Shown one piece after another: positions 8,344-45,253 of a stretch of 64,000 nucleotides of DNA. Each line of letters begins with the position of its first letter. The stretch's first letter is position 1. Both the position numbers and the translations under genes were made by a program. The DNA is from Takakia lepidozioides. Its lineage: Eukaryota > Plantae > Bryophyta. The notes beneath the pieces are model-generated. The model saw only the letters and a program-made list of their open reading frames with translations. It ran no database searches and was not told the DNA's origin. The stretch is from positions 2,480,001-2,544,000 of the forward strand of contig CM060733.1 in NCBI GenBank assembly GCA_030704615.1, given 5' to 3'.

Positions 8344-8806
<463 letters not shown>

Positions 8807-10654: not shown

Positions 10655-10885
10655 ATTTATTTTATTTTATTTTTCAATAAAGGAAACCTGGGAAGGACTG
10701 CTCACAATTCAGGCCCTTGAGGAGGGGGAAAAATTAACCCCCTTTCAGATAAGCCATTAGGCACACAAGTGGGAACGTCACCACCAGACCAACCGGTCAC
10801 GAACGATCCACACACCAGGCAGGGCAGCGGGTTTGAATCCCAAACCCCAGGGCGACACATTGTGCACTTACCATCTGAGCTGTGC
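10655..10885 (-). mobile_element. tRNA-derived SINE, copy 1
   Basis: Minus-strand head GCACAGCTCAGATGGTAAG (A box) ... GGGATTCAAACCC (B-box-like) and an A-rich tail. The body (ccttgaggagggggaaaaattaaccccctttca) is shared with 55651-55860. Confidence 0.7.
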
Positions 10886-19750: not shown

Positions 19751-21077
19751 GCGCCCTGGGAGAAGGGGGGATGCAGTGAGGGAAAGGAATGTAGGGCCGA
19801 TTTTTCCGAGCGACGAAGCCTATTCACGAATCCGGGGAGCCCACTCTCCCAAAAATCCACTGTCAGAGTGTTAATGAACCTTGTCTCCGGAATGCAGCCC
19901 CTGGCCTTTGCGCACTAATTGCCAACGGTATGCAGTCAAAAGGTATATGACCTGTGCAGATGTGCTGCGCAAACCTATAATTACGGCGTCTGACAAGAAG
20001 CGTGGGGGGGCGAGCGTGCAAGCACCTTCCCCATGGACAGAGGGAACTGACAAAGGTGGCATTCCAGTGGGTCTGATTGCAACAAAATGCAACATTGCGC
20101 AAAAAGTGGAACTTTGGTTCAAAGGAGATATTTTTATTAATAATGAACTGTGACAAGTATGCATGCCCTCACAAGCCGAGGGAAGCCAAAAGTATGCATG
20201 CCATCCATGCTCAGGTAAGTTGGGAATTTTCTCCCGTGTTGCACTATTCTCACGAAGCTGGAACCTCGATTGGCCTCTCAACAAGCTCATGACTGATAGG
20301 ATGTCGGTAGGTAAAGACAATGGATGCAGCCCGTTCTCATTTGGTGTAGTGGACAACGGTGTCATGTCCTTCGATATATGCACCATCGTAAATCGAGATC
20401 TTTGTTGTGGAGACTTTGTGTCCATAGGACTCATCCTCGTAGCTTATGAGAATGTCCCCATACACTGTTTGCGATGGAATCCTCTCTGGCATGTACGTAC
20501 ACCCAATGCAATCCTCGTAGGCCCACTGGCAACACCTCCAATGATGTAGGAAGGTCGTGCGGCTTTTGGGGATGTTCCATGTAGGCGGATAGTGCAGATC
20601 AACGATTCGCAGGCACCAAAGCCGCGCAAGCCCGTCCCCGTGAGGCTGATCGTGGAAGGCCAGGAAGGTACTCAAGAGCGGACAGGTGCACCCTCTTCTG
20701 CTGAGAGGGGTCTATCAATCCTACAGGTATATAAAAATATCCCCTGACTTGGGCGAGAAGTCCCACGGGGTGAGATGCTTGTTTGGGCAGTTGCTAGGAT
20801 CCCGGCACGCCATCGCCGACTACTGAAAGGGCTGCCAGGAAGCAGAGAGGGTGCGCAGGGAAGGGGGAGTGTGGGGAAGATGAAGTGAGAGAAGCTCGGA
20901 GCGAGGAAGTGTTGTTGTTGTCTCCGTTTGAAACGCGTGGGTCACGAGCGAAGGTCGGGCAAGTGGCAAAGCAAAAGAGCAGCATTTAATATAACCGTAA
21001 CCAGGAATGAGGCGCAGAATTTACTTCGACATGACGTCCAATCGGAGGGTGATGGCCCCATGTGCCTGCCAAAGAAC

Positions 21078-21670
21078 TTCCCCCGGATGGAAAAACGGCG
21101 CCGAAATTCCATCCGAGGCCGGTCGGTTGAAGTCGTCTCGGGGGGAGAGGCCAACACCTGGCCGATGGAGAACATCCCCCAGATGGAAAAACGGCGCCGA
21201 ATTTCCATCCAAGGCCGCAAGGATGAAGTCGTCTCGGGGGGAGAGGCCAACACCTGGCCGACAGAGAACATCCCCCGGATGGAAAAACGGCGCCGAAATT
21301 CCATCCAAGGCCGGTCGGTTGAAGTCGTCTCGGGGGGAGAGGCCGACACCTGGCCGACGGAGAACATCCCCCGGATGGAAAACCGGCGCCGAATTTCCAT
21401 CCGAGGCCGCACGGATGAAGTCGTCTCGGGGGGAGAGGCCGACACCTGGCCGACGGAGAACATCCCCCGGATGGAAAAACGGCGCCAAATTTCCATCCGA
21501 GGCCGCACGGATGAAGTCGTCTCGGGGGGAGAGGCCGACACCGGCCGACGGAGAATATCCCCCGGATGGAAAAACGGCGCCGAATTTCCATCCGAGGCCG
21601 GTCGGATGAAGTCGTCTCGGGGGGGAGAGGCCGACAGAGATCATCTGAAGGATGGTAAAACGGCGCCGAA
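21078..21670. repeat. Tandem array of about six 96-bp units, each with a stem-loop centred on GGCGCC
   Basis: atggaaaaacgg (or a variant) recurs at 21087, 21183, 21279, 21375, 21471, 21566 and 21652. Each unit contains ggatggaaa-aacggcgccgaa-tttccatcc. Confidence 0.95.
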
Positions 21671-22339
21671 TATCCATCCACAGACGCCCGTTTCGACCCT
21701 TCATCAACAATTTTCAGTCGTTGCATCAAGTTTTTCGCGTTTTTTTGTCTAATCAGACACTAAACTTAGAGTTTTTTGCCTGCGGGCCACTTTTTGGCAC
21801 ATTATTCCAACCAATGTCGTCCGCTAGAGACAAATTCGGTGCCGGTTTTCCATCCATGAGATGGACCGACTTACCTGCAGGATGGAAATTCGGCGCCGGT
21901 TTTCCATCCGGCCGCCCTCCCGCTTACCTGCTCACTACTACATTTAGGGGGGGTTAGCGATGCCGGGACCCCGGGCGCACCGGACGCGCCGACCCTCCTA
22001 TGACTGCAGCGCCGCGCAAGCGCCCGGCCCGGAAATTGCGACGTCGCCGCGTCGCCACCGTATCGCTCCGGTGACGCTTTGCCAGCTTGTGATTCCGCCA
22101 CGTCGCTGCATTTGGGGCATGACCCGCCAGCGAGCTGGGGATTGCGACGTCCGGGCGTCGCACGTACCCTCTGCGAGGCTCCCGCAAGGCTGCGACTACC
22201 GGGAATCGCAACAACACCCCTCACACTTGGGCGCGTGGGGAGGGCCAAGTCAACTCGCGCTGGGTTTTGCGACGTCTAGACGTCACCGAAATGCCACAAT
22301 GGCGAGGTTGCGATTCCTCGCAGTCGCAGGCCTGCTGGG

Positions 22340-25300
22340 GCGTCGCAAAGTGCCTTCTTGCCTGGGGGTCTAGGATTGGGGATTGCTGCTACGTAATAAT
22401 TATTTTTTGGTTGTGTTTTGTTCTGTGAATTCGACCCTTGCACCACTACATCCATGCAAAATATTGGACCAAAAACAAATAAAAAATAAAAAAATGTTTT
22501 CTTCGTTCACTATTGCAGAACTCTCTATGAGTAGTGCATGAAGTTGAAGACCACTCAACTTTGGTGAACCGGTGGACTGTTGGCCCGTGGACCATTGGCC
22601 TCAACTTTGGCCAACGATGGACTTCACGTGAACTTTGGTGGCCTTATTTCAAAATCAACATCAAATCAAACTTCAAATCAACAAATCATCAAATCAAATC
22701 ATGAATACAATACAATTGCACGTCGTTGCCTTTGTGGGAGTTGTTTGACATAATCACCTAAGTCGTAGCTAGCAGACATCCACTGTCAGGAGACAACGTT
22801 GACATCTAGATACATCACTGGAATGGTTGGAGATGGAATGCATGGAGAATGCTTGCATTGTTTTTTTGCACTGTCTCCATAGAATGCCAACGATCGTTGA
22901 AACTAATAATTGCATAATAATTGATGAAGATACACAACAAGTAGAAGCAGAGACTGATATTATCACCCAAATGAAGGAACTGAAGCAGATCATTCTTGTT
23001 GGAGATCACTCGGTGTATAAAGCTCCGGCCTTGTTCAAAATCAACATTAAATCAAACTTCAAATCAACAAATCATCAAATCAAATCATGAATACAATACA
23101 ATTGCACATCGTTGCACTCCAGTTGCACGTCATTTCTTTGTGGGAGTTGTTTGACATAATCACCTAAGTCGTAGCTAGCAGACATCCACTGTCAGGAGAC
23201 AACGTTGACATCTAGATACATCAGATAACTTGTAGAGAACCTCGGATTATGTGCATGCTAAACTTCTTTGGTGGCATCCTCGATTCCTTGACGAATTCGA
23301 AAGATTTTGTCATAGAACGACGCAATTGCAATCGGCCCCAAATACTCTTCGTCACAGAAAAACGCTCGCACATGCTCAGGTAGGATGGTGGAGAGAAGCA
23401 CAACCTCGGATGATTTCGCTTTGTATATAGGATGAGATCCCATTAACATTTTCACTTCCATGTGATTTACATAACGTAGAGTCTTGGTGCCAATTTGCAT
23501 CACTTGCTCTAGTTGCACGTCGTTGCCTTTGTGGGAGATACTAAACTTCTTTGGTGGCATCCTCGATTCCTTGACGAATTCGAAAGGACAACAATATCAT
23601 CGAAAAAATCCAAGGCTTGAGAAAGCAGCTCGGAATCTAAAGGAGGAGAGAGACATACAAGTGGGTTCTCCCTCCCCTTGAACGCCATCACCAAAAACTC
23701 GCGCACATGCTCAAGTAGGATGGTAGAGATAAACACAACATTGGATTGTGTAAAGCTTTGCCCTTATTTCAATATCGTTGTTATTAGTTTTCAAGTTCGT
23801 TGTCTCCACTGTCCGGAGACAACGTTGACATGTAGATTTATTAAATAACTTATAGAGAGCGTCGTATTAGGCATATACTAAACTTCTTTGGTGACATCCT
23901 CGATTCCTTGACGAATTTGAATGGTTTTGTCACATAACGACGCAATTGCAATCCATGCAATACTCTTCGTCAGAGAAAAACGCGCGCACATGCTCAGGTA
24001 GGATGGTAGAGAGAAGCACAACATCTAATGATTTTTCTTGTATAAAGCTTTGGCCTTAATTCAAAATGAACATCAAATCACGAAATCATCAATCATCTAT
24101 CATCAAACCATCAAATACAATAATGAAATAAAGTCAACAAATTATTTCTGGAGGAACAAGATATTATTGCAAGACCATCGATCAAAGGTGCGATACTCTT
24201 CGTCACAAATCAACTCAAGCACATGCTTCGGGTATGACAGTAGAGAGAAGCACAACATCGGATGATTTTGCAAACATCAAACATAAAACATAAAACATCA
24301 AATGAACAGATCGTCAATCAAATAACGATGAACGATTAACGATCTGAAGGAATACTTCCATGATTTTGGAATAACGATTAACGATGACGATTCATGATTA
24401 GCCATTAGCCATTAGCCATTAGCCATTGAAACGATTAGCGATTAGATCGTGGTTATTAGCCTAGATCGTGGTTGGATGGAAAATATGAAGTCCAAATTCC
24501 AACATGTGTGTGGACACAAAGCCTCTGCCGAAATCGGCCAATACTTTGTGCAAATGTATTACGCTGAGGTTGTACTCAAAAGACAATGGATTGGAGCGAA
24601 AGAAGAACATTTTGTGAAATAACCGGTGGTTGCTGCGAAAGAAGAGCATTTTGTGAACGAGTTTGTCGCAGCGGAAGAACAGGTCATCCCTGGACAAATA
24701 AATCACTACGGATAGACACGAGCAAGCCAAGGGCCGTAAATTATGCACATTTCAATATGTAGAGGTTGCTTGGTTACATTGCACTAATTTAAACCAGGAT
24801 CGTCAAAATGAGAGAACAATGTTGGTTGAACAATGCTCACAACTGCGAGCAATTCCAAACTATCATTAGAGTATCACATGTTAGAGATGCAAGAAAGACA
24901 AGAGAAGCGGCCTCACTCCAAGTTTTCAACACTCCGGATCAATGGATTCCTTAAGTGAAATTTGGCTTTATCCAAAGAAACTCCTCTGAAATGCAATCAT
25001 GAGAGCTTTACATTTTAGCAACATCCATCTGATGCTGGTCTTCAACTTCTCATTTTTGTTCCTATGCGAAGACCGAGAACATAACTGAGTGGATGCCTAA
25101 TCCCTATGTGTCCTTCCTGGATGTTTTTTTGGGGTTTGAAAATTCTTGACCACCTCAGGCCTGATCGAAGTACAATCAATGGATGACATTAACGACCGAA
25201 GCGATTAGTGATGTTCATGTAGACCAATTGTAAATTGGTCTCTCTTGCATCATATTTAATTCACATTCTTTCCCTCCACAAAACCACATAGATACACTAT

Positions 25301-28030
25301 GCTGGTCATAAATATAAGCTAAAAATATTTACGTACATGTTTGTAATGAGAGCATTTAAGTAATTGTCGGCTCCCTTTACTTGCACATGATGGGTGTAAT
25401 TTGCTGGATATCCCATTCACATTTCCACCTCCATGTGATTTACATAGTGTAGAGTCTTGGTGTCATTTTGCATCACTTGCTCCAGTTGCACGGCATTGCC
25501 TTTGTGGGAGTTGTTTGACATAATCGCCTAAGTCGTAGCAGACATCCATTGTGAGGAGACAACGTTGACATCTAAATACATCAGATAACTTCTACAAAAC
25601 CTCGATGAGACTTATCTCGAATGACATGATCCCCACCCAGAAAGTGGTGTGTGCTTTGAACTGACAACCATTTCGAAGTTTGAAAAGATCTAGTAGACCT
25701 GTGAAATCACATGATTCTTTTTTTTCCCATTCTCAAGCCATATGCTTAATGACTGCGTGTGCAATGTGCGTGCAAAATTTGGCAGTGAACAAAAGTCATC
25801 TGGACCCAAAACCATATTTTCCTCCATCATTTGCTCTCCAAGGTTGAGTTTTCTTAAACTTCATGCAGGACCTACGACGTCGGGGTAAATATTTCTTCTT
25901 GATGCTCGTCATTTGCAACTTTGCATATGTGATCTGAACATACTTAAGCACATGTGGATCAAATATGAGCTTGAACCAAGTTCAATCAATGGGTCATTCG
26001 AGATTTCAACGAAACTATGTGTCATGGAGACTAAATATTGAAAAGCTTTGGACTCGATCACACACATCCCTGGAAATTAGCAATCTGGATCTAAAGATCG
26101 AGTGATTGTAGGACCTTCCTTGTGCATACCTGAGACCTATTTGAATTCCGAGGGTTTCTAGAAACTGCCATGACAACAATCTGATTTCCTTTAAAGCCTT
26201 GAATTGGTGGCTCTTAAATGCATGTCTTTCCTTGCAACTTCCATAAGTCACAGGTGTTCTCTGCATATCCTTCAGTATGAAAAGTCATGAAGGATACTCT
26301 TTCAGTACGCTGGTTCTAATGCTCCAAACTATCATGTCCTTATCGTAGCCAATGAATACATTTACTTAGTGGCTATAGCTCTGCCTTAGTATCTGGTTTG
26401 ATAGTATTAGTCTATCAAGTACTTGACTCTTAGGTGGAACTAAACTCTTTGGCGATTGAAACTAAAATTAAGGTTTTTACTTCCCACCCACCTGGACTAA
26501 AGGTAAGCTGAGATAAAAACTAGACTCTAGTACAATGAAATTTTTTCTAAATAGACGATGTCATTAAATTTCTTCGAAGGGATCAGTCAAATTTTGTCTC
26601 TACATGACAGTAATAGTTCTCTCTCTTTGTTCCGCCCAAACTAGGCGCGGGTTAAGGCTACGACAAACAACGTCTTATGAGTACATTCGCTCTCTCCCCC
26701 CTCCTTTTTAAAAAAAAAATCTTTTTGCTGCATTCATTCATACTCATCTCTCTCTACACATTTTTTTTTTTTAATTCCACTTTCAAGCCATATGTTTAAT
26801 GACAACATATGCAATGTATGGGCAAAAATTGGGGGTAAACAAAAGTCATCTGGACCCAAAACCATATTTTCTTCCCTCATTTGTATTCCAAAGTGAAGTT
26901 CTCTACAACTTCATACACTCTTCATAGTGAGCAAAGATTTTTTATTTTTATTTTTATTTTTATTTATTATTTATTATTTATTTTTGGTCCAATATTTTGC
27001 ACAGATGTAGTGGTGCAAGGGTTGAATTCACAAAAACAAAACTGAGTAAAAACAAAAATCATTACGTACCAGAAATCCCCAATCCTAGACCCCCAGGCTT
27101 GAGGGTATTGCGACGTCCCAGCGACGTGCAGGAGTCGCAACGTCACCATTTCCCCTTGGACGCCCAGCTCAACGGGGTATTGCGATGTCATGTCGTCGCA
27201 GGATGGCCTAGCGACGCTCTAGCAGGGCAGCGACGTTGGGGAGTCGCAAGGATGCCATTTCCCCCTTGGCCGCCACGTGGCAAGGGCACGCCACCTCACG
27301 GGGGTTGCGATTGCTAGAAGTCGTCCATCAGCGGTAATGCGACGTCAAGGAGTCGCAGAAAGGCCATGTTTAGTGTCTCTTTGCAAAGAACATGGCAGAG
27401 GCCAGGGTCAATTGATCCCCTTCTTCCAATCTTTTATAGTGCTCATTCTCTCTTGTTGTATAACAGGGCCAGAGTTCTTTCTATCACCATTGGTGCCGAT
27501 CCTAGCAAACTTGACGGCCGCAGCCACATCCTCCTCCTCATCCTCTCAGGTGGGATGATGATTTTTTGCATATGCACATGATTTTGTTTTATTCCGTTCC
27601 CAAGCCATATGCTTAATGACAACGTTTGCAATGCGTGTGCAAATTTTGGGAGTGAACAAAAATCATTTGGACTGAAAACCATATTTTTTTCCCTCATTTG
27701 CATTCCCAAGTTGAGTTCTTTTCAACTTCATGCACTCTTCATAGAAAGTTCTGCAATAGTGAGTGAAGGAAACTCTTTGTTTTTTTGTTTTTTTTTGTTT
27801 GGTCCAATTTCTTCCATGGATGTAGTGGTCTGGGGTTTGCATTCACAGAACAAAATAGAGCTAAAACAAAAATCATTGCGTAGGAAAAATCTGCAATCAT
27901 AGATATTGTAAATGTAGGGGGTTGCAACCTCCAGGGGTCGCCTTGCGACGGTATTGCGATGCCCCAACAGGTCTGCGATGGCGGGGAATCGCAATATTGC
28001 CTTTTCTGTGTCTTTGCAAAGGTCATGGCA
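22340..28030. repeat. Inverted and direct internal duplications in the CACTA region
   Basis: 22340-22550 is the reverse complement of about 26900-27110. About 27570-28030 repeats about 26760-27400. The block ttgcctttgtgggagttgtttgacataatcacctaagtcgtagc...acgttgacatc recurs at about 22725, 23130 and 25495. Confidence 0.8.
22911..23009 (+). pseudogene. Upf1/SEN1-like SF1 helicase fragment (motifs II-III)
   Basis: CIIIDEDTQQVEAETDIITQMKELKQIILVGDH resembles the IIDEAxQ..ExE....LVGDHxQL consensus. Confidence 0.6.
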
Positions 28031-28084
28031 GAGGCCAAGCTAAATGGATCCATTGTTGCAAATCTTTTTAGTCCTCCTTCTGTG

Positions 28085-30880
28085 CTACAATATAATAGGT
28101 CTATCTTGCATGTGGGAGACCGTGATCAGCCCGGGCGACCTTATTGTTAAAGACAAAGGGCAAGAAGAGGGGGTGGGGACACTAGGAAAGGAAAAGGGAA
28201 GGGCCATGCGATTAGAGGGTTGAGGGTAGATTGCTTTGGCAATGGCTTTGGCAACATTGTTGTGTTTCACACCAATTTCAAAGATTCTTTCTGTTGCATC
28301 AAGATCGTGGTAACCAAATCGATTGAAGGGTTTCCAGGGGTAAGTCTTGGTCACCACTTGTAGAACAAGAACCATGTCTTCCAACATTCTTGCCCTCGTA
28401 CAAAAACTCAACAATCCTAGAGTCACTTTTCGAGTCACAACTTCACTAAAATCATTCATAGATCGCCACACCTACAAAGGATTTTTTTCATGGATTTTTC
28501 ATTAATCAATCATAAAAATAAACTACATGCATGTACATGTACAATCAATCGAAGGGATGGGTATAGTTATGTGCGAGAATTATTATGTAGCTTGCAATAG
28601 ATTGTGGTAGTCACGAGACTTCAAACCATGGACCCCGTCTTCGTTGAACTTCATACGGAGGGATGACCCATAACCAGTTGGTGTTCGGACAGCTCTTATG
28701 GTGGCTATCACTTTCTTGTATTCCTCCTTTGTTCATTGCCAAGGTGCACGCATATACTTCCACCGTACAACACTCTTTGGGTCCACACCATTTTCTTCGG
28801 CCAATAGATGGGGCATGCGACCCTGCTCCTCAAGTTCCTTTCTAACACCGAGAGAATCTCATTTCGCAGCCACTCCCTTCTTTGTCGGCGTGCCATGAAG
28901 AACACGAAAAAAGGACGAGCAAACATTCTTCTCAATATGCATAGGATCTAGAAGATGACGAATCTTCAGGTCCTACACATATCCCCACCCACAAATTCTT
29001 ACACTTGTCTATTTTGTCGTGAAAGTGACAATGGAAATCATACAAAACATGCAATATCACATGCATGCATAGCAATATTGATGGTGTTTTTGTGGAATAT
29101 GTACCGCCCAATATGGCAACTCGTAGAAGATTGAAAGCCGCTTCATGCCGGACACCTCCACTTCACCGGACCCCTCCGGATGGGCCTCCTTCCATCGGTC
29201 TTCCCAAAAGTGCCTGGATGGTGTCACATGTGGGGGACGTAACTCCACTTTGCCATCAAACAAATGTTTGTCTCTTCTTCTCCAATGATGGCTCATAGGA
29301 AGAAACTTGCGATAGTTGGGATACACCATCTTGTGAAGATTGCTGGAGCTTTGTGCATCAAGTTCATCGCCACAATGCAGGCATGCGTGGTACCCTTTAG
29401 TGCTCAACCCCGAGCAAACAGTAAGTCCTGTAGACATTCCGCCACATTAGGAAAGACAAAAAGTTTCCATGTGCATCTATCCCACTACGGTGCAGAAGAC
29501 TGTCACCGCTACTTCAATCAATCCCAATCCTCATCAATATCCCTTGACAGGTAAATGTACGCGGGTTTCTCATGGGGAACATAATATACCTGGATAATCA
29601 TGCATTGTCCAAAGAAGATGCCTCTCATCTGAAAAGATTGTCCGGCCATAGGGTCAAGTGAAGCATCCAATGCCGCCACCCCCCTCCATAGCTCATTCAG
29701 TTCATCAACTAGAGGACGCAAGTACGTGTCTATGTCTTTCACTTGTTTTTTCCCTATGAGACATTCACATCATTAATTGTTTCAATGCTCCACCATGCTA
29801 ATTATACTTCATAATGAATGACACATCTTACTACATGATTACGTCACTCATCAATCTTCCATCGGAATTGCGCCAAAGAGAAGAAGATTAATGTAAAATC
29901 CAAAGTAATAATAAGCATGAAATGGGAACACTCACCCGGTACAATGGCAGCCAATATATATGATATGGCCTTTTCTTTATTGAAAGATACGGAGGGATGT
30001 TGTAATTCACCATGGTCACCGGCCAAGTGGAATGACTACATGACTGGACAGAGAATGGGTTGACCCCATCCGAGAAGAAGCCGAGGCGGACATGTTGTGG
30101 GTCCTCCAAGAGAAAAGGCCACATCTCTTCAGTATGCCTCCATGCTGTGAATCTTGTGGCCCGCACACCTTTCCCGGCCGGGGGCTCCAATGCGAGGCGT
30201 GCCATCTCATCAGTTCTGCCAATGAGGGGCTTCGGTAATGTGCCTGCAGTCGCGGGATGATTGGAAAGTAGTGCATTTTCTAGCACCATCCCCATGTCGG
30301 CCCCATATCATAATCAATGTCATTCATATCTCTAAGTAAAATCTTACGTCTTGTAGCGGTTGCAAAAAGGTAGAATGCAATAGGGTTTTATCACATGGAC
30401 ATGCATGAAAAATCTTATAGCCCATCCCCACAGCATCCAAGGTTGTTCTTGCCTCTTTTCTTGATCGTGGCATTCTCGGCTTCAAATGTGGGGCAAGGAT
30501 GTAGTCTGCAATAGTCCGCATTATGGCGGACATACCCACATTGCTTATGTCAAACCGGATTTGCAAATTCAGCAACAAAAAGATGGTTGAAAGTCTACTC
30601 ACTTTGGCCCCTTTGTATAAGGGAGTTTTGGCTTCTTTTTCCATGTCATTCAAAGAGTCCGTGTCCTCATCTACCATCTGATGCATTAAGAGGTCCTCCA
30701 TTGCTGCCACATCCTCATGCATAATTCCATTGTCATTGTTGTCCTCATCATCGGAGACCGCCATTTCAGACGGGGTCGGGTCCTTTGATACGCACCCCCC
30801 CTCTGAAGGAACAAAATCCGGGTTCATGACAAGATCATGAACTTCATGAATTAACGTCGTGGGGTTGTGGCCTTCATCCT
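28085..30880 (-). pseudogene. CACTA TnpD (Tnp2 / Transposase_21) transposase, multi-exon, disrupted
   Basis: KTPLYKGAKVSRLS; HYFPIIPRLQAHYRS; HVRLGFFSDGVNPF...STWPVTMVNYNIPP; KDIDTYLRPLVDELNELW; GLSTKGYHACLHC; GMKRLSIFYELPYW; LDPMHIEKN. Confidence 0.9.
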
Positions 30881-31192
30881 AAGATGCCAAAAACAACCAT
30901 GTCATTATCAGTTTCCATACATGGCGTTGTTCATTATCATACATGATAAAACCCAAAGTACACATTATACACACGAGGGGAATACATACATTGCTTCACC
31001 ACATGAAGGAGACACTATATAATTCAAAATACCCAAATTCACATATAACATCCACCCAAACTCCCTTGAATATAGCATAAAAAACTGCATCCAAATACAC
31101 ATCAATGCCTATGTATATATATACACGGTGGAGGAAGCCACCTCAATGTACAAAATATCTTCCTACGTCCATCTACACATGATGAAAGTCGG

Positions 31193-32965
31193 CTAACGCC
31201 TGAAGTCATACTCTGCAAACAACTCCTCTCCAACCCTAATAGTCCTCCTTGCACATGTCATCACAAAAGTGGTGATGTTAGGGTCCAATCTACTATCCCT
31301 GTCATGGTGCTCATCCCAAAACACGTTGGCAGTGTGGCCCGGCGGTAAGGTAACTGAACTGTTGATGAGCCCAGCCACGTTGCCGTACACATCGGGGTTT
31401 CTGTCACAATAAATATGGGCTTTGTGGCCCAAATATCTCGCCCCTACATCATTGTCGTTTACAACAAGGATGTAAGGATGGATCAAGGACCCAAGACCGT
31501 GTGTCTGCAATAATTGCCACTCCCGGTGGGTGTACCTCGGCCCAAAATAGGGGAACAAATCCACAGAATCCTCTCCTCCCCCCAAAACTACATCCTCCAT
31601 AAAAAAAAGTCCGCGACCCATACTAGGGTCCATTGTCTCTATCACGCAATACATGCGACCCCAAAAAAGAAAGGGCTCACCCTCGGGAATCGGAACTGAA
31701 CAAGGCACAAGACATTGGTAGAAATAGGGTTGGACTCCCATCGTGAATAGCTCCCTAGCACCACGATGACGTATGGTGCCATCATCAGGCCGGCGAAGGC
31801 GCGGACCAACCGTGCGAAACAACTTCGGTCCACCTCTCCTAGGGGGCGGCGCCCGTCCATCACTTCGGGGGCCTTTCACCCGGAGTGGGAACCTAGTGAT
31901 CCATCGGTCCCAGTCATACATAGTCCCCAAAGGTGGTGGGATCCATCCGGGTTCTGCCGAAGGACCCGGATACGGACTTGGTGGCGGCTGCAGTCTCGGC
32001 AATGGAGGAGAAGGGACACGTAGGTTGGTATGAGGGATCTCGCGTGGAGGTAGTACTGGCCGAGATGGTCGGGATGACGATGGTGATGAGGAAAGAACAT
32101 GTACAATAGGAGGAACGGACAATGCGGATGATGGTGATGATGGGGTGCCGATGTTGAGGATGTCGAACTCGGACTCGGTGGCGGCTGTGGTCTCGGCAAT
32201 GGAGGGGAAGGGACACGTAGCCGGTCGGTCTGAGGGACCTCGGATGGCAATGGTGATGAGGAAAGACCATCTACAATAGGAGGAACAGACGATGCAGATG
32301 ATGGTGATGATGGGGGTGCCGATGTCGAGGGTGACGAATGTGTGTGCGTAGGTGGCAAGCGCCTAGCCCGGTGCCCAAAAATAGAAAAACACGCATCGTA
32401 CCCCGCTACCTCACAAACTGCATCTACGTCATATTGCGAGAAAAAAATGTTCACATCTGGAACGGGGTGGGGCTCGTAAGAAGGAAGAAACCCGCATCGG
32501 TATGCCTCTTCAGCAAAAAAAATTGCGAGCTTGGATATCAAGACGGGGCTGCAAGATGCATGATATGAAATGCATCAATACTCAATTCACAAACGCGAGG
32601 TTTCATTAGATATAGTACTTTTAATTGAGGAGTACGTGAGAAGATATATGGACGACTTACCTGTGCTGCATCAGCAATCTCGTACTTGGCGTAATGTTTT
32701 GCACAACCGGTAGTCGTGCCCAACACCAACTGCACCAACACTCAATCTTGGGGAGGCGGTCCCGGCGGGGTCTCCCCGGGGCTCGTGCCTCTGGACTTGG
32801 CGGCCTACGACCTCTGGGTGGTGGCCGTGGGGGCAAAGCTGTGCGGACATGGTGATGCCGCCTAACTCGTAGACGAGGCGAACGTGCTGTCTCGCCCTCA
32901 GCAGGTGGTTGTGGCACAACCGGCAACGAATCCTCAAGCGTGACACGTCGATAAACACGCGGCAT
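31193..32965 (-). CDS. SET-domain protein with a Pro/Ser-rich N-terminus; SET portion in intact frame 31193-32122; upstream exon to about 32965, intron at about 32549-32660, apparent frameshifts
   Basis: MGRGLFFMEDV (GxGLF), FPYFGPRY (YxG), DVYGNVAGLINSS (GNxARFINHS-like), ANV, and ARRTIRVGEELFAEYDF (RDIxxGEELxxDY). Minus-strand splice sites are cag|GTAAGT and ttgcag|. Confidence 0.75.
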
Positions 32966-34127
32966 GACCTAGCACGAGAGAGAGATAGAGTACCGTATTG
33001 TGACCCACTGTAACCTCCGGAGGAGTTACACTCCCAACCCTTGGAAAAACTTGAAAAAAAAAACCCTACAAACGTAAAGCCATATGTCCCCACCCCACAA
33101 AAAAAAAAAAACCCTAAAAAAAAAACTATATTGCAGCTAATCCTAAACTAACTATATTATAACTAACCCTAAACTAAACTATGAAACTAAACCCTAAACT
33201 AAACTATGTAACCCTTAAAACCCTAAGAGCCAAAGACCCAAAAACCCAAATGATCCTTGTAAACCCCATAACCCAAAAAACCAAAAAAATAAAATAAAAA
33301 ATGAGATGCATCTTCAACTCATCTCTGCGCCAGATCTGCGACTGCCGTGCAACGTCCCCCTAAGGCAGCGACGCTCGTGCGATTCCCCAACATCGCAGCG
33401 GATCCTCCTCCTGCCAAGGTGACCGCCCTTCTCTCCCCTTCGCGAAGGCGCCTGATCGCCGCCGAGGGTTTCCGGTGGGGTCGCCACACTGGCGCGTCGC
33501 GGCTGCACCGACTACCTCTCACTCCCCCTCTCAATCTCTCTATCTGATCTCTCTCTCCTTCACCCTCCTCCTCTCACTCTTCCTCCCTCCCCTCCCTCCA
33601 TCCCTACTTTGTTTTTTTTTGCTCTCGAGCTCTCCCGGGCGCAACTACCCCCGCACGCCGGAGCGTTTTCCGGTGGTGGTGACGCAACACTGACGCGCTA
33701 CAACGTTCAAACCCGCGCGCGCCCTCTCTCTCACTCTCCCTCTCGCCCTAATCCATCTCCCTCACTCTCTCTCTCCATCTTCTATCTCGTTTTGTTTTTT
33801 TTTGCTATTTGAGCGAGCTGGGAGCGCGCCCCGTGACCTGCTGGTGGAGCGCCAGCCGAACGCCAGCGCCGCGGGAGGGACCGCCAGCGTGAAGGAGCTG
33901 TCGCGTGAGGGATCTGCCCTCCCTCTCCTTCTCTCTCTCTCATTCTCCCTCTTAGCTCTCACTCTCCCTCTCGCCCTTATCTCTCTCCCTCATTCTCTCC
34001 CTTGCTCTCTCTCTCCTTTTCTTTATTTATTATTTATTTATTTATTTATGTTTGAGCGAGGGAGTGTGCCCACGCGACCTGGTGGCGGAGCGCCAGCGGA
34101 ACGCCAACGTGAAGGAGCTACTGCGTG

Positions 34128-34290: not shown

Positions 34291-34607
34291 AGGGAGAGAT
34301 TCCCCTTTTTGGGGGGGGACCTGCACAAATGAGAAGGAGAGAGAGGGAAGATACTTTTGTCATGTCAAGACAAGGACGGGACCCCTAGGGTCGTTGTCAG
34401 GAAAAATAAGAATAATCAGACATATCAGCCACCTTTCAGTGGCACTATCCATCAATCATCAAGCTGGAAAATCCAGAATTACCTCAATGCACAATAATGT
34501 GTTCATGTCAGTAAAGAGTAAGTAAAAATACTGATTGAACACCAGTCATAATCAGGATATACATTCAGAGGTCTGGGTGGGATGGTGGCCACTTGGCCAC
34601 TTGGCCA

Positions 34608-35500
34608 TATTGATGTGTGTGTCCCACACAAACCACCATAATCTTTGCCTTCATTGCCAGGTTTATTATCAAGATGAAAGCCAAGTAAACCACGGCCAAA
34701 AAACTGATGTGTGTGTCCCACAAACCATCATAATCTTTGCTATCATTGTAAGGTTAAACAGGGCCTAAAAACTGATGTGTGTGTCCCACACAAGCCATCA
34801 TATTCAGCACCTGTATGTTTAACCTAACAGGTTGGAAGACCCACAAACTAATGTGTGTGTCCCACACGAACCATCATAATCTTTGCCATTATTGCAAGGT
34901 TTATTAACAAGCTGAAAGCCAAATAGACCAGGGCCTAAAAACTGATGTGTGTGTCCCACACAAGCCACCATAATCTTTGCCATCATTGCCATGTTTATTA
35001 ACAAGCTGAAAGCCAGTTAGACCATGGCCTAAGAATTAATGTGTGTCCCACACAAGTGATCATCTTCTCAGCCATCATTGAAAGGTTTAAACAAGGCCTA
35101 AGAACTGATGTGTGTGTCCCACACAAGCCATCATAGTCAGCAATTGTATGTTAAACCTCACAGGCTGGAGACAAAGCAAAAAAAGGCTACAAGCTGATGT
35201 GTGTGTCCCACACGAACCACCATGGTCTTTGCCATCATTGCCAGGTTTATTAACAAGCTGAAGCCAAGTAAGCCAGGGCCTAAAAACTGATGTGTGTGTC
35301 CCTCACAAGTCACCATATTCTCAGCCATCATTGCAGGGTTAAACACTGTCCGGGAAGGTACCCAAAGGGTTGCAGCAAACTATAACTTGCAACACCTATA
35401 TGTTTACCCTAACAGACCGGAGGCAAAGCAAATCAGGGCCTAAAAACTGATGTATGTATCCCACACAAACCACCATAACTTAGCCACCATTGCAGGGTTT
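34608..35500. repeat. Degenerate tandem repeat, about 10 units of 65-160 bp
   Basis: The core aaaactgatgtgtgtgtcccacacaa...ccataatctttgccatcattgc recurs at about 34611, 34703, 34770, 34849, 34940, 35038, 35104, 35194, 35286 and 35445. Confidence 0.85.
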
Positions 35501-38030
35501 AAACAATGCACGGGAAGGTACCCAAAGGGCTGCCGCAAACAATACATTGTAGTCCCTTTATGCTTAACCTGACAGGTTGGGGGCAAGGCAAGGCAGTCTC
35601 AGCCATCATTGCAAAATAGGGGCCCTCCACCAATCTGTAAAGGATTACCCACCACAAGTAGCACTATACTGTCCTTCACAGATCAAACATAGAGGTAGGA
35701 TCATGAAAAACATAGAGTAGTTTAGTTTTTCAGATTTCAAGATGAATCCACAGTCAGCCGCCATCTTCACTCCTTTGTAATCCTCATGGTACCCTGCAGC
35801 ACTTAGCAATCAGCATATTAAGTGGAAGCCCTCACCTGTGCCCGTCCCAAAAACAACCACAACGCATTGTGAGTTAGTGAGGATGCACGAGGAGAGTAGC
35901 AGGCTTCCACACTTGCTATCGAGGTCAAATACACTTGAATCTAAGCACAGAGAATGCCAAAGAAAGCAGGGAAGCAAGACAAACAGAAAAATAACCTTTT
36001 TTACTATTTGGGGGATGGTCGCCATCTCTCCACAAGCCCAACCGTGTAGGGAGGTCTCTGCCAACACCACAGCACTGCTACCTTAACCAAAGCAAAGTCT
36101 TGCCAAGCACAAGAAAAAAGAGCTTTGTGTCTCATAAGGTAGGGTTTATAAAGGGAGGGAGAGAGAGACTTCCTTCTTTTACCAAGACACCGCCATTCAT
36201 CAAAGATCCAGAGGAGGGCTCCTAAGGAAACTTCATAAGCAGGCAGGTGGTACCTCCGCCATCACTGCCTTTGTTCCCTTGTGCAGCAAAAAAACAGACA
36301 AATGAGACAGTGCCTTCACTCACCTCAAAAGAACCGCCGTCTCCCTAATGAATCCATAGGGGCGGCATTCATAGAGTCTTTAAACAACCCAAGGAGCGGC
36401 AACTCAACGTAACTGCAGCTCGAGCACCTCTCCTCTTCCATGCCGCCATTGCGCGATCCTTCAACGCAAGAGGCAAAAATATGGTTGCGCGGGGACCTTA
36501 CCTTGTCTTGCCTGATGAATTTCATCCAGCATAGCCTTGAGCCCGGCGGACAGATTCCAATTTCCATCAAGGTAGGATGAGAAAAATCAGGAAATTACAT
36601 AAAGGTTCAACACATCACAGCTATGGTATAGGCTGGATGAAATCAAGGTAGGCTATACTGAAAAATCGTAGGCAGTAATGAAAAATCAGATACGTGCCAA
36701 GGTAAAACGGATGAAACCAGGATGAAATTCATCCGGTTTTCCCTGCAACCCATATTTTAAGCACAAAAAATATGGAAGTCGGGATAACAATTCCATAGAC
36801 CCAGGTAACAGAGGGAGAGAGAGGGATAGAGGGGGCCAAGAAAATAAAAAAACAAGTGGGGGGGGGGGGGGGGGGGGGGTGGGGTGACTGAGCAGCAGCA
36901 GCTCAGCCCCTCTTTGGTTTTTTTTTTGTGAGTAGCTGAGGGACAGGGACAGATGGAGGAGAGAGACGGAGAAATGAGGCAAAAATAAATAAATAAAAAT
37001 AAATAAAAATAAATGGGCGGGGGACTGACTGAGCAGCAGCTGCTCAATCCCACCTTCATTTTTTTTTTTTCCCCCTCAACACTCCCTCTCTCTGCACATC
37101 CTGATGGGACAGAGGGAGAGAAAGGGACAGAGGGAGAGATGAGGGAAAATAAATAAAAAAGAAGGTGGTGGGGGGGGAGTGACTGAGCAGCTGCTGCTCA
37201 GTTGCTGGTGCTGCTTAGTCACCCCCCCCCCACCCCCCCAACCATCTTTTTAGATTTTTTTTCCCTCCTCACTCCCTCTTTCTCCCTCTCTCTCTCTCTC
37301 TCTCCACATCTTCATGGGACAGAGGGAGAGATGAGGGAAGATAAAATGTCTTGTTGAGACATGTACAAGACCAAACAAGGTCTTTGTCAATTTTTACGAC
37401 AAATCAGCTTCATAACGAGGCACTATCAATCACTCTTCATTCATAAACTAGTCTGATGACATATAACAGATCTCACGGTTCATGAAATTTCTGGGTGGGG
37501 GGGTGGGATTATATAAAAATCCGCTTCAGTATATGCTTCATTATGATGTTTGTCCAAATAGGGACCCAATCATGTATCACATGTATGGGTGTGCTTTCAG
37601 ATGTAACAATAGCAACTGTTCATAGCAGGTAAAACTTGTTTATCCTGCTAACATTACTCCCCATGATTACATTAACACTATGAAAAGGAAGTTCCAGTTT
37701 TTATGTAATCTTATGGCCATATCAAAGCATCAGACAGATTGTGAACCATTTACACATAAGGGGTATGACCTCATACCTTGTTTTTTTGTCCCAAGACCTG
37801 GTTTAGGTCTGGGGCCATTGTATAAATGTGGTAACAAGGTGTTGAGTAGCAATTAGTTATACATATTGCTACTTTTACCATTGTGTAGAGCAGGAAAGCA
37901 AGTCTTAAGATTGCTAAAATTTATCACCCATGGTTACATTGTATTTGTGCATACCAAACAGCAATGTAGGAGGTCGTATGGTATCCCAGCCATTGGGCTC
38001 TTGGCCATGTATGTTGTTTAATGCAGGCCC

Positions 38031-38700: not shown

Positions 38701-39738
38701 ATGGAAGGCACATTTGCGGAAATGGTCACCACATTGCAGAGTCTTCAACTCCAGATGCAAGAACTTCGTACATCTACCGCCCAATTGCAAGCTGATTAGT
38801 CTCAAGATCTTGGCAACGCTCTCTACAATTTGCAACAACAAATTTCAGAGTTAAAAGAGTCGAACAATGGATCTTCAACCATACGAGTCCCTACTGCAAC
38901 AGCTCCTACTGCAACGGTTCCTCTTCAACAGATTACGAGAGAACCAAATATCAGCATGCCCGAGAAATTTGATGGGACGAGATCAAGATTTCGCGGTTTT
39001 GTTCAACAAGTACGACTGTTCCTACGATTACATCCACAACGCTACCCCGATGAAGGTATTCAAGTGGGATTCGTGGGCACCCTTCTATCAGGCACTGCCC
39101 TATCTTGGTTTGCACCGCTATTAGAAAAAAATTCGCATTTACTATATAATTTTGAAGCATTCATGTCCGAGTTCACTGCAATGTTTGGAGAAAATGATAG
39201 AGAGAGAGTTGCAGAAACAAAGATGCAAAATCTTCGACAATGATCACGTCTTGCTTCCGTTTATGCTGCCGAATTTCGACAACTTGCGTGCGACCTCGAC
39301 TGGAATGAGAAGAGCCTCATTAGTCAGTTTCGATGTGGACTAAAAGATGATGTAAAAGATTTGTTGCTGACAATGCCAAACGTGAGCACCCTGAGTGAAT
39401 TCATCACCCAAGTCATTACATGCAATCGTTTGTTCGAAAGACGTCAAGAGAAGCGATCTGGATGGTCGACGACGCATCATGTCACTGCTACTACGACACC
39501 AAATACAACGATCCATCAGACATCCAGTAGTGATCCTATGCAGATTGATGTTGTCCGATTCAAACCATTGACGCCACAAGAAAAACAAAGACGGCGCTCG
39601 AATGGATTATGCCTCTATTTCGGAGAAGAAGATCACATAGCCTTAAACTGCCCCAACAAGAGAAGATTCAAAGCTCGGGGCACAACTCAAATGTTCGATA
39701 CGAGGAGGTCGGAAAACGACGATGTCCAGTCACAGTAG
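38701..39738 (+). pseudogene. Chromovirus gag, with stops
   Basis: PEKFDGTRSRFRGFVQQV, LLSGTALSWF, DPMQID, and a degenerate CCHC GLCLYFGEEDHIALNCP. Confidence 0.88.
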
Positions 39739-39755
39739 GGACCATGCGGCTGGAC
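39711..39755 (+). promoter_or_regulatory. -1 ribosomal frameshift signal at the gag/pol overlap
   Basis: Slippery G_GAA_AAC (39711-39717), a 6-nt spacer and the stem gtccagtcaca/tgcggctggac. The -1 frame reads GKRRCPVTVGT into the protease. Confidence 0.7.
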
Positions 39756-41860
39756 GCCACAAATTTCTTACCGAAAAAAAATCTTTTTCTACCTCCAGAC
39801 CCTACACCTTGCTTCATAGTTCCAATAAAAATCAGAATGCAAAATCGAGATATCGTTGTAGAAGCACTTTTGGACTCAGGAGCTTCAGCTTGTTTTATGG
39901 ACAAAAACTTTGCGACGCAACACAATTTAACGCTCGTAAAGAAGAAATTTTCGGCCCCCGTTGAAGTCATCGATGGACGACCGTTAGCATCAGGAAATGT
40001 GGACCATGAAACTCGACCACTTGAAGTGAAGCTTAAAGATCAAGCATCACATATTGTTTTCAATGTCATCCAGTCTCCAATGAATCCTGTGATCCTTGAA
40101 CTTCCCTGGTTCATATTTCACAATCCCGACATCGACTGGTGATCGCGAAAAAATTCTGCAAGACAAAAATGTAGAAATATCAAAGGTACTCAACCCCTAT
40201 TCCTTGGAGCTAGAGCTTTCATGAGAGCTACAAAAAAGGAGGCGGTATTTGCACTTTATGCGACTCCGATCAAGACCACAACAGACAAATGTACTTCAAC
40301 ATTACCCGCTTAATATCAAGATTTCAAAGATGTCTTCGAGAAGAAAAATGCAGACATGTTGCCAGAACATCGACCTTATGACTGTGCAATTGAGTTACAA
40401 GAAGGAGCCCAACCACCATTCGGCCCAATCTATAACTTATCCCAGACGGAGTTGGCTGCATTACATGAATACATTGATGAAAATTTGTCGAAGCACTTCA
40501 TCCAACATTCAAAATCACTTGCGGGGTCGCCTATCTTGTTTGTGAAAAAGAAGGACGGATCATTACGCATGTGTGTCGACTATCGCGGTCTCAACAATGT
40601 TACAATCAAGAATCGTTATTCGTTGCCGCTGATTTCTGGGCTTCTCGACCAGCTAGGACGAGCGAAGATTTTCACCAAAATCGACTTGAGATGAGCCTAT
40701 AACCTTGTACGGATAAAAGAATGAGACGAATGGAAAACAACTTTTTGAACAAGGTATGGACATTTTGAATACAATGTTATGCCTTTCGGTCTTACCAATG
40801 CTCCAACAATTTTTCAACATATGATGAATGACATCTTTCGAGAATTTTAGATGACTTTGTAGTCATTTATTTGGACGACATTTTGATATTTTCACAGAAT
40901 GAAGAAAAACATGGCCGCCATGTACGCCTTGTCCTTGAAAAATTAAGAGAAAGAGGACTATATACCAAGTTGGAGAAATGTCTTTTTCATCAATCTGAGG
41001 TCGAATTTCTGGGCTACATTATTTCCGACAAAGACGTCTTTATGGATCAGAAGAAAATACAAACCATCATCGAGTGAATTAAACCAACTTCGGTCCGAGA
41101 TGTACAATGTTTTCTGGGCTTTGCAAATTCTATAGAATCTTCATCAATGACTACTCCAAAATTGCTGCACCGTTGACACGACTCACAGGGAAGGACAAAA
41201 TTTGTATGGGACGAGAAGGCTGACCAGACATTTGAAAGGCTGAAGCAAGCATTTACAACGGCTCCAATACTGGTACATGCAGACCCATCTAAACCATTCT
41301 TCTTAGAAGCAGATGCATCGGACTTTGCACTTGGCGCGGTACTCTCGCAATACGGTACAGATGGCCGACTCCACCCTGTTGGTTTTCGTTCTCGCAAATT
41401 TTCCGCTGCGGGGATCAATTATGAAATCCATGACAAAGAACTTCTAGCGATTATCGATGCTTTTGAGGAGTGACGACATCTATTGGATGGAGCTAAACAT
41501 CAGGTCACTATCTATACCGATCACAAAAACCTCGAATATTTTATGAGTGCTCGTGTTTTGAATCGACGTCAAGCGAGATGGAGTATGTCACTAGCAAGGT
41601 TTGATTTTGTTATTACCTACCGTCCCGGACATCTTCAAGGAAAACCAAATGCTCTTTCTCGACGATCGTATCTTGCGCCAAAAGAAGGGGATGCAGTTTT
41701 TGACCAACAAAAATTCATTATCTTGAAACCAGCAAATCTCCAATTGAATATGCTATCCATGTCTATCTATGACGATGCAGAGATCATAAAGGAGATTCAG
41801 GAAGCACTAAAGAGCGATCATTTTGCTACGACACTACGAAGTCAACTAAATCAACTTCGA

Positions 41861-43731
41861 ATTGGACACCACACCGATCATGAGGCAGTGTCCGGATGAA
41901 GGCATTTGCCTTCTAGACTTGTTTGGCGGGATCAACACTGGATTGGCTGCTGTTCTACAGGCAGGTGTACGGGTACGGCGTTACCTGTATGTGGAGAGGG
42001 ATGAGACTGCACGACGCGTCTCCCTACGCCATGTTGCTCAGTTGGTGCAGCAGTACCTTGAGTTGTTGCCTGTGTCTGCAGTTCGTGGATATCAGTAGGC
42101 CTTGCCAGCAGACATTTCGTTGCTGGGGGCGCAGGATTTGGAGCGGGTTGGCTTCATTGATTTGGTAGTGGCAGGTTGGCCCTGCCAAGGGCATTCATCA
42201 GCCGGGCATGGCAATGGATTGCGAGACTCGAGGTCGGGTCTGTTTTGGGAGATGGTGCGGGTTTTGCGCCACTTGCAGCTTCATCAAGCTATATCTCCAG
42301 CATACATCTTGGAGAATGTGCCATTGATGGGCAATTCTCGGGCCAGGGTGATGGCCAGTGTGCATCAAGTCCGGTTGTGGCTTGGGTCAGAAGTGTTGCT
42401 GGATGCAGCTGCAGTGGGATCACGGGCTCATCGTCCACGGTTATGGTGGACTAACTTGATGCCACCCGCACTGCTTAAGCGTGCATTTGATGGGGTGCAG
42501 CGGCCAACACACCTCACAGTGGATAGCACTCTGGATACAGGGAGGCAGTCTCAACGTGTGAGACACGATGACCGTTCACTTTTGGCAATGGTCAACAAGG
42601 TGGGTCGACCACGAGTAGCACTACCTACACTGCTCAGCTTCCCAAGATCGCATGCTTTCCGGGATAACGGACCTGGCCTCCTGTGGGATGCTCAGTTGCA
42701 GCAGTTAGTGGAGCCTAATGCCGACGAGTGAGAGCGGGCTATGGGTTTTTTCACTGGGACCACGGCGGTGCCTTCTCTTTCTGAGGCATCACGTCGTCAG
42801 GTATTGGGACAAGCGATGGATATAAATTGCTTGACCTGGATTATCAGCTTGACTATGGCTGAGTAATGTAGAGTGCGGAGTGCACTTCCCTAAACGGTCT
42901 CTCTGCCTACCGAGACGGTACAGGCAGTGAGTGGGGGCGAGCCGGTGAGGACCACGGGGTGTAGACATCCATGGCACACATGGGATGTGCTCGAGGCTCA
43001 TAGGGAGTTGGCAGCCAGGGCGGCTGTGATGGATGAGGTTGGGGATTTTTCTCGGGTTGAGGAAGTCCACGAAAATGGGGCAAGATGAGGCTTTGTCATT
43101 GACTGAGCAGGCAGGGAATACTGCTCAAGAGGTTGCAACATAACAACCACTGGACGCGTCCTCTACCTCTAAGCCCACTGGACTTAAGGTTGCAGTTACG
43201 GAGGACAATTGGGAGCCTAACATTGGACCCATTGTCACGGGAGGCGATAAACGACGTATACGGCGGTTCCTGAGGGCTTACAGGAATTGCTTTGCCTTCA
43301 GTTTGAATGGACTTGGGAGCACTGAAGGGTCAAGAGATTCGTATTGACTTGGCCACTGACACGCCAATCTTTCGAAGACCCTATAGATACAGTGACATGG
43401 ACAGGTCTTTGATTCAGATGAGGACTCAAGATCTCTGGGAGGCTGGTTTGGTGGAGCTCTCTGGTGGAGAGTATGCTTCAGCCACAGTGATGCTAGCCAA
43501 GAAGGATGTCTATGGCAATTGGACGGAGAGACGTATGTGCGGTGATTACCGGCCTGTAAATCGTCAGACCAAGTCCGATAAGTATGCCATGCCAACACCA
43601 GGAAGAGATCTTTGATGCCATCGGGCATGCTAAGGTCTTTAGCACTTTGGATTTACGATCCGGATATCACCAGTTGTCGATCAAAGAGGCGGACAAACAG
43701 CAGACAACATTTTGGGGGATCAATGAGCACG
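41861..43731 (+). pseudogene. Internal DNMT + RT N-terminal fragment from the DNMT-Gypsy family, inserted between RNase H and integrase
   Basis: Homologous to minus strand 2942 to about 1058 (LDTTP...[12 protein letters not shown]...WPCQGHS...ENVP...RPRLWW...FWGINEH). It has no LTR and carries several stops and indels. Confidence 0.93.
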
Positions 43732-45253
43732 ACAACCCACATGTTACAAACGACTTCGAATTCAAAGATGGCTTACTTTACTTCAAGGGACTTCTCTATG
43801 TACCTCCAGGACCTACGCGACTTCGAATTCTTCAAACATGTCATGATCTTCCGGCTGCAGGACATTTCGGCTTCAACAAAACATTGGAGTTGATATCCAG
43901 GGACTATTGGTGGCCGCAGATGTGGAAACTCGTGAAAGAATTCATAAAATCTTGTGACACGTGTGCTAAAGCGAAGGGACCACGACATCGACCTTACAGC
44001 CTTCTTCAACCATTACCCATTCCCGAGGGTCCATGGTCGTCCGTGTCTATGGACTTTATTACGGACCTTCCAATTTCCAAGACCACCGATTCAATCCTTG
44101 TTATTGTAGATCGTTTTACGAAGATGACACATTTCATTCCATATAATAAGACGGTTACCGGCGAGGAAACTGCAAGACTCTTCCTCAATAATATCTACCG
44201 CATTCATGGACTCCCGAAGGACATCGTATCTGATCGAGGACCACAGTTCATATCAAATTTCTGGAGGGGATTATTTCACATATTGGATACTAAGATCAAC
44301 CTCTCTACAACTAATCATCCACAAACTGATGGTCAAACCGAACGTGTAAACCAGATTTTGGAGCAGTATCTTCGCTGTACGATAAATTATCACCAAGATA
44401 ATTGGACGGACCTTCTGTTATTGGCTGAGTTTGCCTATAATAACAATATACGTTCTTCGACCAAGCAAACTCCATTTTTCTCCAATTATGGTCATCATCC
44501 TTGAGCAAACCATTTCCACATAAAGACTGTTGGAAGCCCTGCTGAAGAAAACCTTGCTACTCATCTAGCTACGATTCACAAGGAGCTTACATCTCACCTC
44601 GCAGAAGCTCAAAAACAATACAAGGAGTATGCAGATCAACGTCGCCAACTCCAACCCCAGTTCAAGGTCGGAGATCGTGTGTGGCTTCTTCAACGAGAGA
44701 TACAAACCTCGTGACCATCAAGGAAGTTGGATTATCAACGCCTGGGACCATTCAAAATTATTCGACAAATAAATCCAGTCAGTTTTCGGCTTGAACTCCC
44801 ACGAAGTATGCGCATCCATCCAGTCTTTCATGTTTCATTATTGGAGTTGTATCATCCATCGAATATTCCAGGGAGAGTCTCCGTACCACCTCCATTAGTC
44901 GAAGTCAATCAAGAACTTGAGTATGAAGTCGACGAAGTCCTAGACTCTTGCATCAAGTATAAACGTCTTGAGTATTTCATACATTGGAAAGGCTATGACA
45001 TCAGCGAACAAACGTGAGAACCTTCATCCAACCTCGCTAATGCATCTGATAAAGTCCAAGAGTTTCATCAATGATATCCAGCTAAGCCCCGAGCTACACG
45101 TCAATAAGACGTCACAACGATGATGTCCGTCAAGTTAGCTTCAAGGTGAAGACTCCACATTCAATGTACCTGATACACGCTAAAGAGAGAAGAGCCCCAC
45201 ACATCAGTATATATAGCTACACTTCCAACACTCTTGCATCTTGTATTGGCAGT

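Follow-up and report, generated by a model that had tools for sequence, protein, structure and literature searches.

Probable transposon cargo: a SET-domain exon in a tnpD intron of a CACTA-type element of Takakia lepidozioides

The stretch of Takakia lepidozioides contig CM060733.1 that we analysed (64,000 nucleotides, hereafter the window) contains a CACTA-type transposon whose genes are read from the minus strand. A frame at 31193-32362 on this strand runs for 389 codons from stop to stop and carries GRGLF, PYFG, GNVAGLINSS, ANV and RTIRVGEELFAEY, all the motifs named in the initial annotation, which had placed a SET-motif ORF about 300 bp upstream of TnpD on the same strand; the first core exon of tnpD (acceptor 30878) follows 314 nt beyond the stop of this frame. 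The SET-domain core (195 aa), together with a family-specific N-terminal flank, occupies 31196-31780 (minus strand) as delimited by profile, alignment and structure, and shows the motifs GxG, N..G.INSS and ELxxxY without post-SET cysteines. What had been described as a Pro-rich N-terminal part is a duplicated Pro/Ser-rich linker (31973-32338, minus strand; self-BLAST of 31973-32167 against 32170-32338, 74%), whose length varies between copies of the element, contigs from runs X7 and X9 skipping 179/214 nt there.

The first core exon of tnpD (30324-30878, minus strand) begins at an AG acceptor, has no start codon and encodes an acidic region followed by the pre-Transposase_21 region; by tblastn it matches Riccia P0061 at 40% identity. 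The rest of tnpD (28088-30307, minus strand) encodes Transposase_21 and contains several frameshifts, PF02992 matching it in three pieces (E 2e-17, 1e-12 and 2e-7) and indels being evident against other copies. By tblastn, the tnpD of the window is 40-53% identical to Riccia TnpD. The DUF4218 part was found neither by tblastn in the window nor by Pfam searches of 61 ORFs in 21900-29200, and no Pfam match to a TnpA HTH protein was obtained in 21900-29200, a rearranged and decayed region.

Upstream of both lies exon 1 (32661-32968, minus strand, ATG at 32965), whose product starts Arg/Pro-rich and continues with a zinc-finger motif, CxCxxC...H, of the Transpos_assoc type, a domain found at the start of plant TnpD proteins. 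An AG acceptor immediately precedes 32968, and the junction of exon 1 with the tnpD exon that begins at 30878 is in phase 0. This splice was predicted and then met in run X7, where a single contig with 41 letters on its short side shows the joint 30877-32660, skipping 1782 nt with CT..AC ends; the joint was not seen in runs X5, X8 and X9. In X7, a contig further runs from 33336 to 32970 by way of 44 letters of different sequence, and the segment 33336-33441 (minus strand) is probably a 5' untranslated exon of the element transcript. X7 is only guessed to be RNA and covers 27 of the 30 bins of a wider stretch; X8, likewise guessed to be RNA, covers 6 of the 30 and was left out.

Because the X7 joint splices exon 1 to tnpD across the ORF, the SET ORF lies within an intron of tnpD, the first in its coding part. 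A separate SET gene, free-standing ahead of tnpD and having a start of its own, was rejected on this ground. We infer instead that the SET exon (31193-32548, minus strand, preceded by a TTGCAG acceptor) is an alternative terminal exon in the 1782-nt intron, and that splicing of exon 1 to it would give a zinc finger-SET isoform, with exon 1 as the shared first coding exon. One X7 contig breaks off at 32550, leaving 11 letters unaligned, in weak agreement with such splicing; none was found to span an exon 1-SET junction by at least 31 letters on each side. The X7 pieces on the SET exon, where the contig has its own 1-nt deletion at 32462, are no proof of a SET mRNA, since X7 covers most of the region. 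The broken exon 1 of the window gave no significant PF13963 match, and a zinc-finger HMM from seven relatives failed to single it out (E 0.67, rank 5 among 2083 ORFs).

On its own the window sequence matches SET profiles weakly, with PF00856 at E 0.023 for the whole ORF and E 0.0043 for the 195-aa core. A phmmer search of the PDB with this single sequence returned no matches, a word-index search with it confirmed no relatives among 286 candidates, and AF2 without an alignment folded the domain poorly (pLDDT 32.7). HMMER over 1.84 billion representatives found 50 proteins at E<=0.001, 13 of them at E<=1e-10. Thirty-nine of the 50, which are 27-39% identical to the window, were aligned with it (40 rows); the others were ten short or partial matches and P0002, an artefact of tandem repeats. 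Among these rows 36 matched PF00856 at E<=1, the best at 6.5e-9, and AF2 run on the alignment gave a pLDDT of 83.7 and a pTM of 0.78. All matches listed by Foldseek against the PDB are SET methyltransferases (best E 1e-5, TM about 0.5), and VIA put SET7/9 first (Z 11.8, rmsd 3.3 over 137 residues). The SET fold proposed earlier is thus borne out by both profile and structure, a chance ORF is rejected, and, judged from alignment and structural model, the ORF holds a genuine SET domain of a divergent family.

To which SET proteins this family is closest is less specific. Set1, ASH1L, SET8 and EZH2 fall within 1 Z unit of SET7/9 in VIA, so that no host SET subfamily can be assigned, and host subfamilies are only 15-22% identical in the structural alignments. 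In view of these tied matches and the missing post-SET Cys cluster, we assigned the family to none of SUV39, Set1/Trx, Set2/ASH1, E(z), SET7/9 and SET8. The best PDB matches of the family profile are LegAS4 (E 4e-6 over the whole domain) and then EZH2 (E 0.01). Viral SETs match the fold about as well, and the Atlas clusters that come closest consist of small SETs, from giant viruses (stand-alone proteins) and from haptophytes.

Thirty of the 50 relatives were looked up, and comprise five from Riccia sorocarpa, one from Ginkgo biloba and 24 with no organism label. No prokaryotic relative was confirmed among 140 + 10 pattern matches in genome contigs and no viral one among 70 + 19 in viral contigs; none was confirmed in the phage and plasmid collections, and NCBIfam and PHROGs gave nothing convincing. 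A weak search for longer homologues, covering only proteins of 878-2505 aa, found none among 3323.

The motif labels used here follow general usage for SET domains, in which Gly and Asn take part in binding SAM. The first glycine of GxG is kept in 38 and the second in all of the 40 rows, the Asn of NxS in 35, the knot Asn in all 40, the Glu of EL in 36 and the catalytic Tyr in 34, with three rows truncated or gapped at the last position. After the catalytic Tyr column 38 of the 40 rows have no Cys, in line with the earlier remark that post-SET cysteines are absent. The change of NHS to NSS had also been noticed and is family-wide: the motif is of the GYINSS type in place of the canonical RFxNHS, and since its His is missing in 40 of 40 rows, NSS is a family trait and not a sign of decay.

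The initial annotation had left a pseudo-enzyme as one of two options, and a non-catalytic reader or decoy, binding either histone tails or SAM, would agree with the universal loss of the NHS His, with Gly or Ala in place of the canonical Arg before FxN, with Phe in place of Tyr as the motif-II aromatic (15 against 25 of 40 rows) and with a window score of 17.9 bits against the Pfam cut-off of 22.4 for PF00856. We nevertheless regard it as the less likely branch, and as quite improbable, because the catalytic Tyr, the Asn and the GxG glycines are kept across deep divergence. That Tyr is the residue required for activity in PRDM9, according to the available text of PMC6116924. LegAS4, which reads YINFS at the NHS site and so also has no His, methylates H3K14 and reprograms host expression, as far as the available text of its description goes (10.64898/2026.05.29.728679); hence the lost His does not exclude activity, and NSS as proof of a dead enzyme was rejected. 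Judged by these residues, the SET product of intact copies is probably an active enzyme.

Several lines of evidence place the SET exon in a mobile family. Run X1 has 6-13 distinct contigs at the listed SET positions, which marks the family as multicopy and dispersed; its summed depth there is 6,000-15,000 against 150-330 at 26000-26601, which is not a copy number. A 1599-nt DNA contig of run X5, from another study, spans tnpD to SET and so shows the linkage in independent DNA. One copy in X1/X2 has no SET exon at all (joint 31000-32551, with a second joint 30756-30928), and may be a deletion derivative or a member of a SET-free subfamily.

The ends of the element are less clear. A CACTA-type terminus with sub-terminal repeats at 21933-22564 (plus strand; one match) may be the 3' end of this element or that of an adjacent non-autonomous relative. 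Its sub-terminal motif has 8 matches against 2.2 expected, with none of 100 shuffles reaching as many, and inverted copies of the terminus block were found by self-BLAST at 26963-27150 and 27705-27903. No partner for the 21933 terminus was found in the window at up to three mismatches, and no TSD. The sub-terminal blocks at 22298-22564, 26963-27150 and 27705-27903, inverted or duplicated, enclose about 5 kb of internally repeated non-coding DNA with a faint AAA-helicase fragment (22803-23087, E 0.001), the whole perhaps a nested non-autonomous element. Upstream of the element, a tandem repeat of about 70-95 bp at 34600-35600 has deep contig cover in X7 and X8 (both guessed RNA), the contigs stepping back 68 or 235 nt.

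Parts of this arrangement recur in Riccia and in metagenome contigs. In Riccia, the 794-aa gene model R1sor_016921 encodes a partial SET of this family followed by TnpD (PF02992 E 3e-23; PF13960/DUF4218 E 2e-31), in the order seen in the window. Direct linkage of SET to Transposase_21 was thus found in Takakia lepidozioides and in one Riccia gene model. Four metagenome loci were also compared, and three of them (L001-L003) have upstream of SET a CxCxxC..H exon with a phase-0 GT donor, and a phase-0 AG acceptor before SET; there is no such exon in L004. The L002 and L003 exons match PF13963 (Transpos_assoc) at E 1.3e-4 and 9.7e-4, below cut-off, the L001 finger has no Pfam match, and Riccia P0047 matches Transpos_assoc at E 0.03. 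None of the four loci reaches Transposase_21, and the acidic exon downstream in L002 is not significantly TnpD-like (E 14 and 2.1).

Placed in a family tree of 43 rows, the window belongs to a group of 11 rows that includes Ginkgo (support 99/96); the Riccia copies, which fall in separate clades, and L001-L002 lie across the midpoint from it. With the tree rooted at its midpoint, linked cases are present to either side of the deepest split, which suggests that the layout is old. Taking together the fold, the multicopy family and the tnpD link here, in the independent DNA run and in Riccia, the initial view of a transposon-borne SET domain holds, and the SET exon is very probably cargo of the element that shares exon 1.

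The copy in the window is itself damaged. Exon 1 is 37 nt shorter than in the X5 contig, which has 40 letters for the three at 32700-32704. Read in phase 0 from its acceptor, the SET exon meets a stop at codon 13, and around 32143 its reading passes into another frame from one Pro/Ser repeat to the next. We place one 1-nt frame break in the T run 32515-32522 and a second near 32143; the deletions that cross the latter point in X7 and X9 are of the size expected if the window lacks a base there. At the Gly of DG.P, kept in 37 of 40 rows, this copy alone has Arg. The window has T/A against C/G in other copies at 194 places and the reverse at 91, as in methylated, silenced DNA. Judged by its reading frames, this copy is dead on both isoforms.

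These data bear on the earlier remark that the SET frame is intact while the transposase has decayed. The SET domain is indeed uninterrupted and tnpD frameshifted, but the SET gene is broken upstream of the domain, and as the copy is dead on both products the remark is no evidence of selection. Private changes of this copy look neutral on sequence comparison: among the sites at which the window stands alone against a common letter of the other runs, 11 were listed, a subset, and seven of these change an amino acid (p 0.5 against an assumed 0.73). Selection on the SET of this copy was rejected in view of these changes, the exon 1 deletion and the frame breaks. The neutral-looking sites and the copy with no SET exon are what one would expect if the exon were a captured host gene fragment carried as a functionless passenger. 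We find this very hard to credit for the family as a whole, as the motifs are retained among members only about 30% alike, the Riccia copies are spread over separate clades, the position and phase of the exon recur, and there is no close host SET subfamily (15-22% identity).

The window holds further mobile elements. Two Ty3/Gypsy copies, at 968-5869 (minus strand) and 38800-45017 (plus strand), are 92% alike over 1.9 kb, and the pol region of each includes a domain of the C5 cytosine methyltransferase type (PF00145 at E 1e-12 and 9e-13); in the left copy it follows the protease and the FGG, PCQ, ENV and RxR motifs are readable. This would be a second chromatin-writing transposon cargo in the window. 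A decayed multi-frame ORF at 16130-20443 (minus strand) encodes Cys/His-rich segments and a SWIM finger (E 0.003); it is probably part of a MULE-like or related DNA transposon, and adjoins a 96-bp tandem array with internal hairpins at 21031-21680. Three in-frame pieces of 172, 192 and 304 aa at 48431-50443 (minus strand) resemble, on visual inspection, a reverse transcriptase of the Penelope type, with the motif FRYIDD, and have no convincing Pfam match. A host BAH-domain gene exon lies at 60279-61280 (plus strand, E 2e-14), and PPR-like fragments were seen by eye at 53740-54042 (minus strand).

What might intact elements do with such an exon? In the model we favour, one promoter would give rise, by alternative splicing, to a zinc finger-TnpD protein and a zinc finger-linker-SET protein. 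The latter would be a SAM-dependent lysine methyltransferase with a histone substrate, and the shared zinc finger, or TnpD, would target it to copies of the element. Marks placed on the histones of cognate copies would then help these to resist silencing and stay expressible, an accessory role like that of TnpA or VANC, by analogy with which the direction of the effect is proposed. That the shared-exon SET methylates histones on its own copies and thereby favours their expression is a tentative reading, to which we give slightly less than an even chance.

An active SET isoform might instead write a repressive or acetylation-blocking mark, limiting its own element or damping host defence genes. 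The closest profile match, LegAS4, writes a mark tied to host reprogramming and not to self-activation, EZH2 and SUV39H2 are among the tied structural matches of Foldseek and VIA, and small giant-virus SETs form the nearest Atlas clusters; the chlorovirus vSET writes H3K27me3. The likeness to LegAS4 is however remote, its profile E of 4e-6 standing beside an NCBIfam AnkI/LegAS4 match of only E 0.22 in one of 14 rows, and the transposon accessory regulators that have been tested, VANC and TnpA, oppose silencing (PMC12730594 and 10.64898/2026.08.24.746577, respectively, in their available text). We therefore consider a repressive mark unlikely.

A non-histone lysine, in TnpD itself or in a host silencing protein, might also be the substrate, methylation then tuning transposition. 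SET7/9, the top structural match, has been solved with TAF10, ER and DNMT1 peptides (by entry titles), the common N-terminal exon could unite both isoforms, and no histone-reader domain was seen. As the lead of SET7/9 amounts to less than 1 Z unit and is not meaningful, this substrate seems to us improbable, to much the same degree as the pseudo-enzyme.

The self-activating model can be extended, by analogy, to a lineage of CACTA elements in non-flowering land plants that uses SET where flowering plants use TnpA, the zinc-finger exon steering to copies of the same element a histone methyltransferase that writes an activating mark. This extension is doubtful; if it is true, a histone code that a transposon writes for itself would have been conserved between liverworts and Ginkgo. 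The enzyme would have been recruited by insertion of an exon behind the transposase's own N-terminal domain. The tested transposon anti-silencing factors, VANC and TnpA, bind DNA and act on DNA methylation. For SET enzymes carried by transposons there are records from oomycetes and red algae, and no activity test of them was found in the literature searched. A small, post-SET-free family in a land-plant CACTA, with members in a sequenced liverwort, makes self-written histone marks of a transposon testable. Annotated 'SET domain-containing proteins' of Riccia that belong to this family are probably transposon products, and may inflate counts of host SET genes.

Our full-text literature searches found no description of a land-plant CACTA with SET, although Repbase Reports, most subscription journals and preprint supplements (e.g. 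Plavaka Supplemental Table 6) could hold one. The Riccia genome paper (PMC11735767) mentions neither CACTA nor methyltransferase in a term search, the available part of PMC13547354, on En/Spm, has no mention of 'SET domain', and that of PMC11982613 has nothing on TE-borne SET. SET cargo as such, which the initial annotation had thought non-standard, is already known in DNA transposons including EnSpm/CACTA; it is the land-plant shared-exon form that we did not find described.

According to the available texts, SET cargo occurs in HarbingerS and oomycete MuDR (PMC12730594) and in Helitrons (cited in PMC12730594 and 10.1101/2025.02.11.637652). These resemble the present case in encoding a SET lysine methyltransferase within a transposon, but belong to other superfamilies and hosts, and no shared-exon arrangement is described in the available text. 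As to the fold, LegAS4/RomA (PDB 5czy, 8sr6), SET7/9 and giant-virus SETs have, like the window family, no post-SET cysteines. The family differs from LegAS4 and SET7/9 in sequence (15-22% identity), in having no ankyrin or MORN domains, and in its own N-flank and DG.P motif.

A near likeness in cargo is PAG2 of red-algal Plavaka, a member of the EnSpm/CACTA superfamily, in which an N6-adenine methylase is fused to SET (10.1101/2025.02.11.637652, available text). In both cases SET is an accessory cargo of an EnSpm-superfamily DNA transposon, and PAG2 has been proposed to modulate chromatin. PAG2 is, by description, a separate gene in a three-gene cassette of 17-19 kb elements; the methylase domain PF01555 is absent from the SET exon and from the family members scanned, so that the locus does not correspond to the Plavaka cassette of PAG1, PAG2 and PAG3. 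Unlike PAG2, the SET of the window is an exon inside a plant Transposase_21 tnpD, behind the transposase's own zinc finger. If it makes two products as proposed, the element would resemble maize and Arabidopsis En/Spm, where one transcription unit encodes a transposase and an accessory regulator. Spm produces TnpA and TnpD by alternative splicing, and TnpA, apparently confined to flowering plants, is anti-silencing (10.64898/2026.08.24.746577, available text). TnpA binds DNA as a protein of the HTH type and brings about DNA hypomethylation, whereas the putative second product of the Takakia element would be a SET enzyme.
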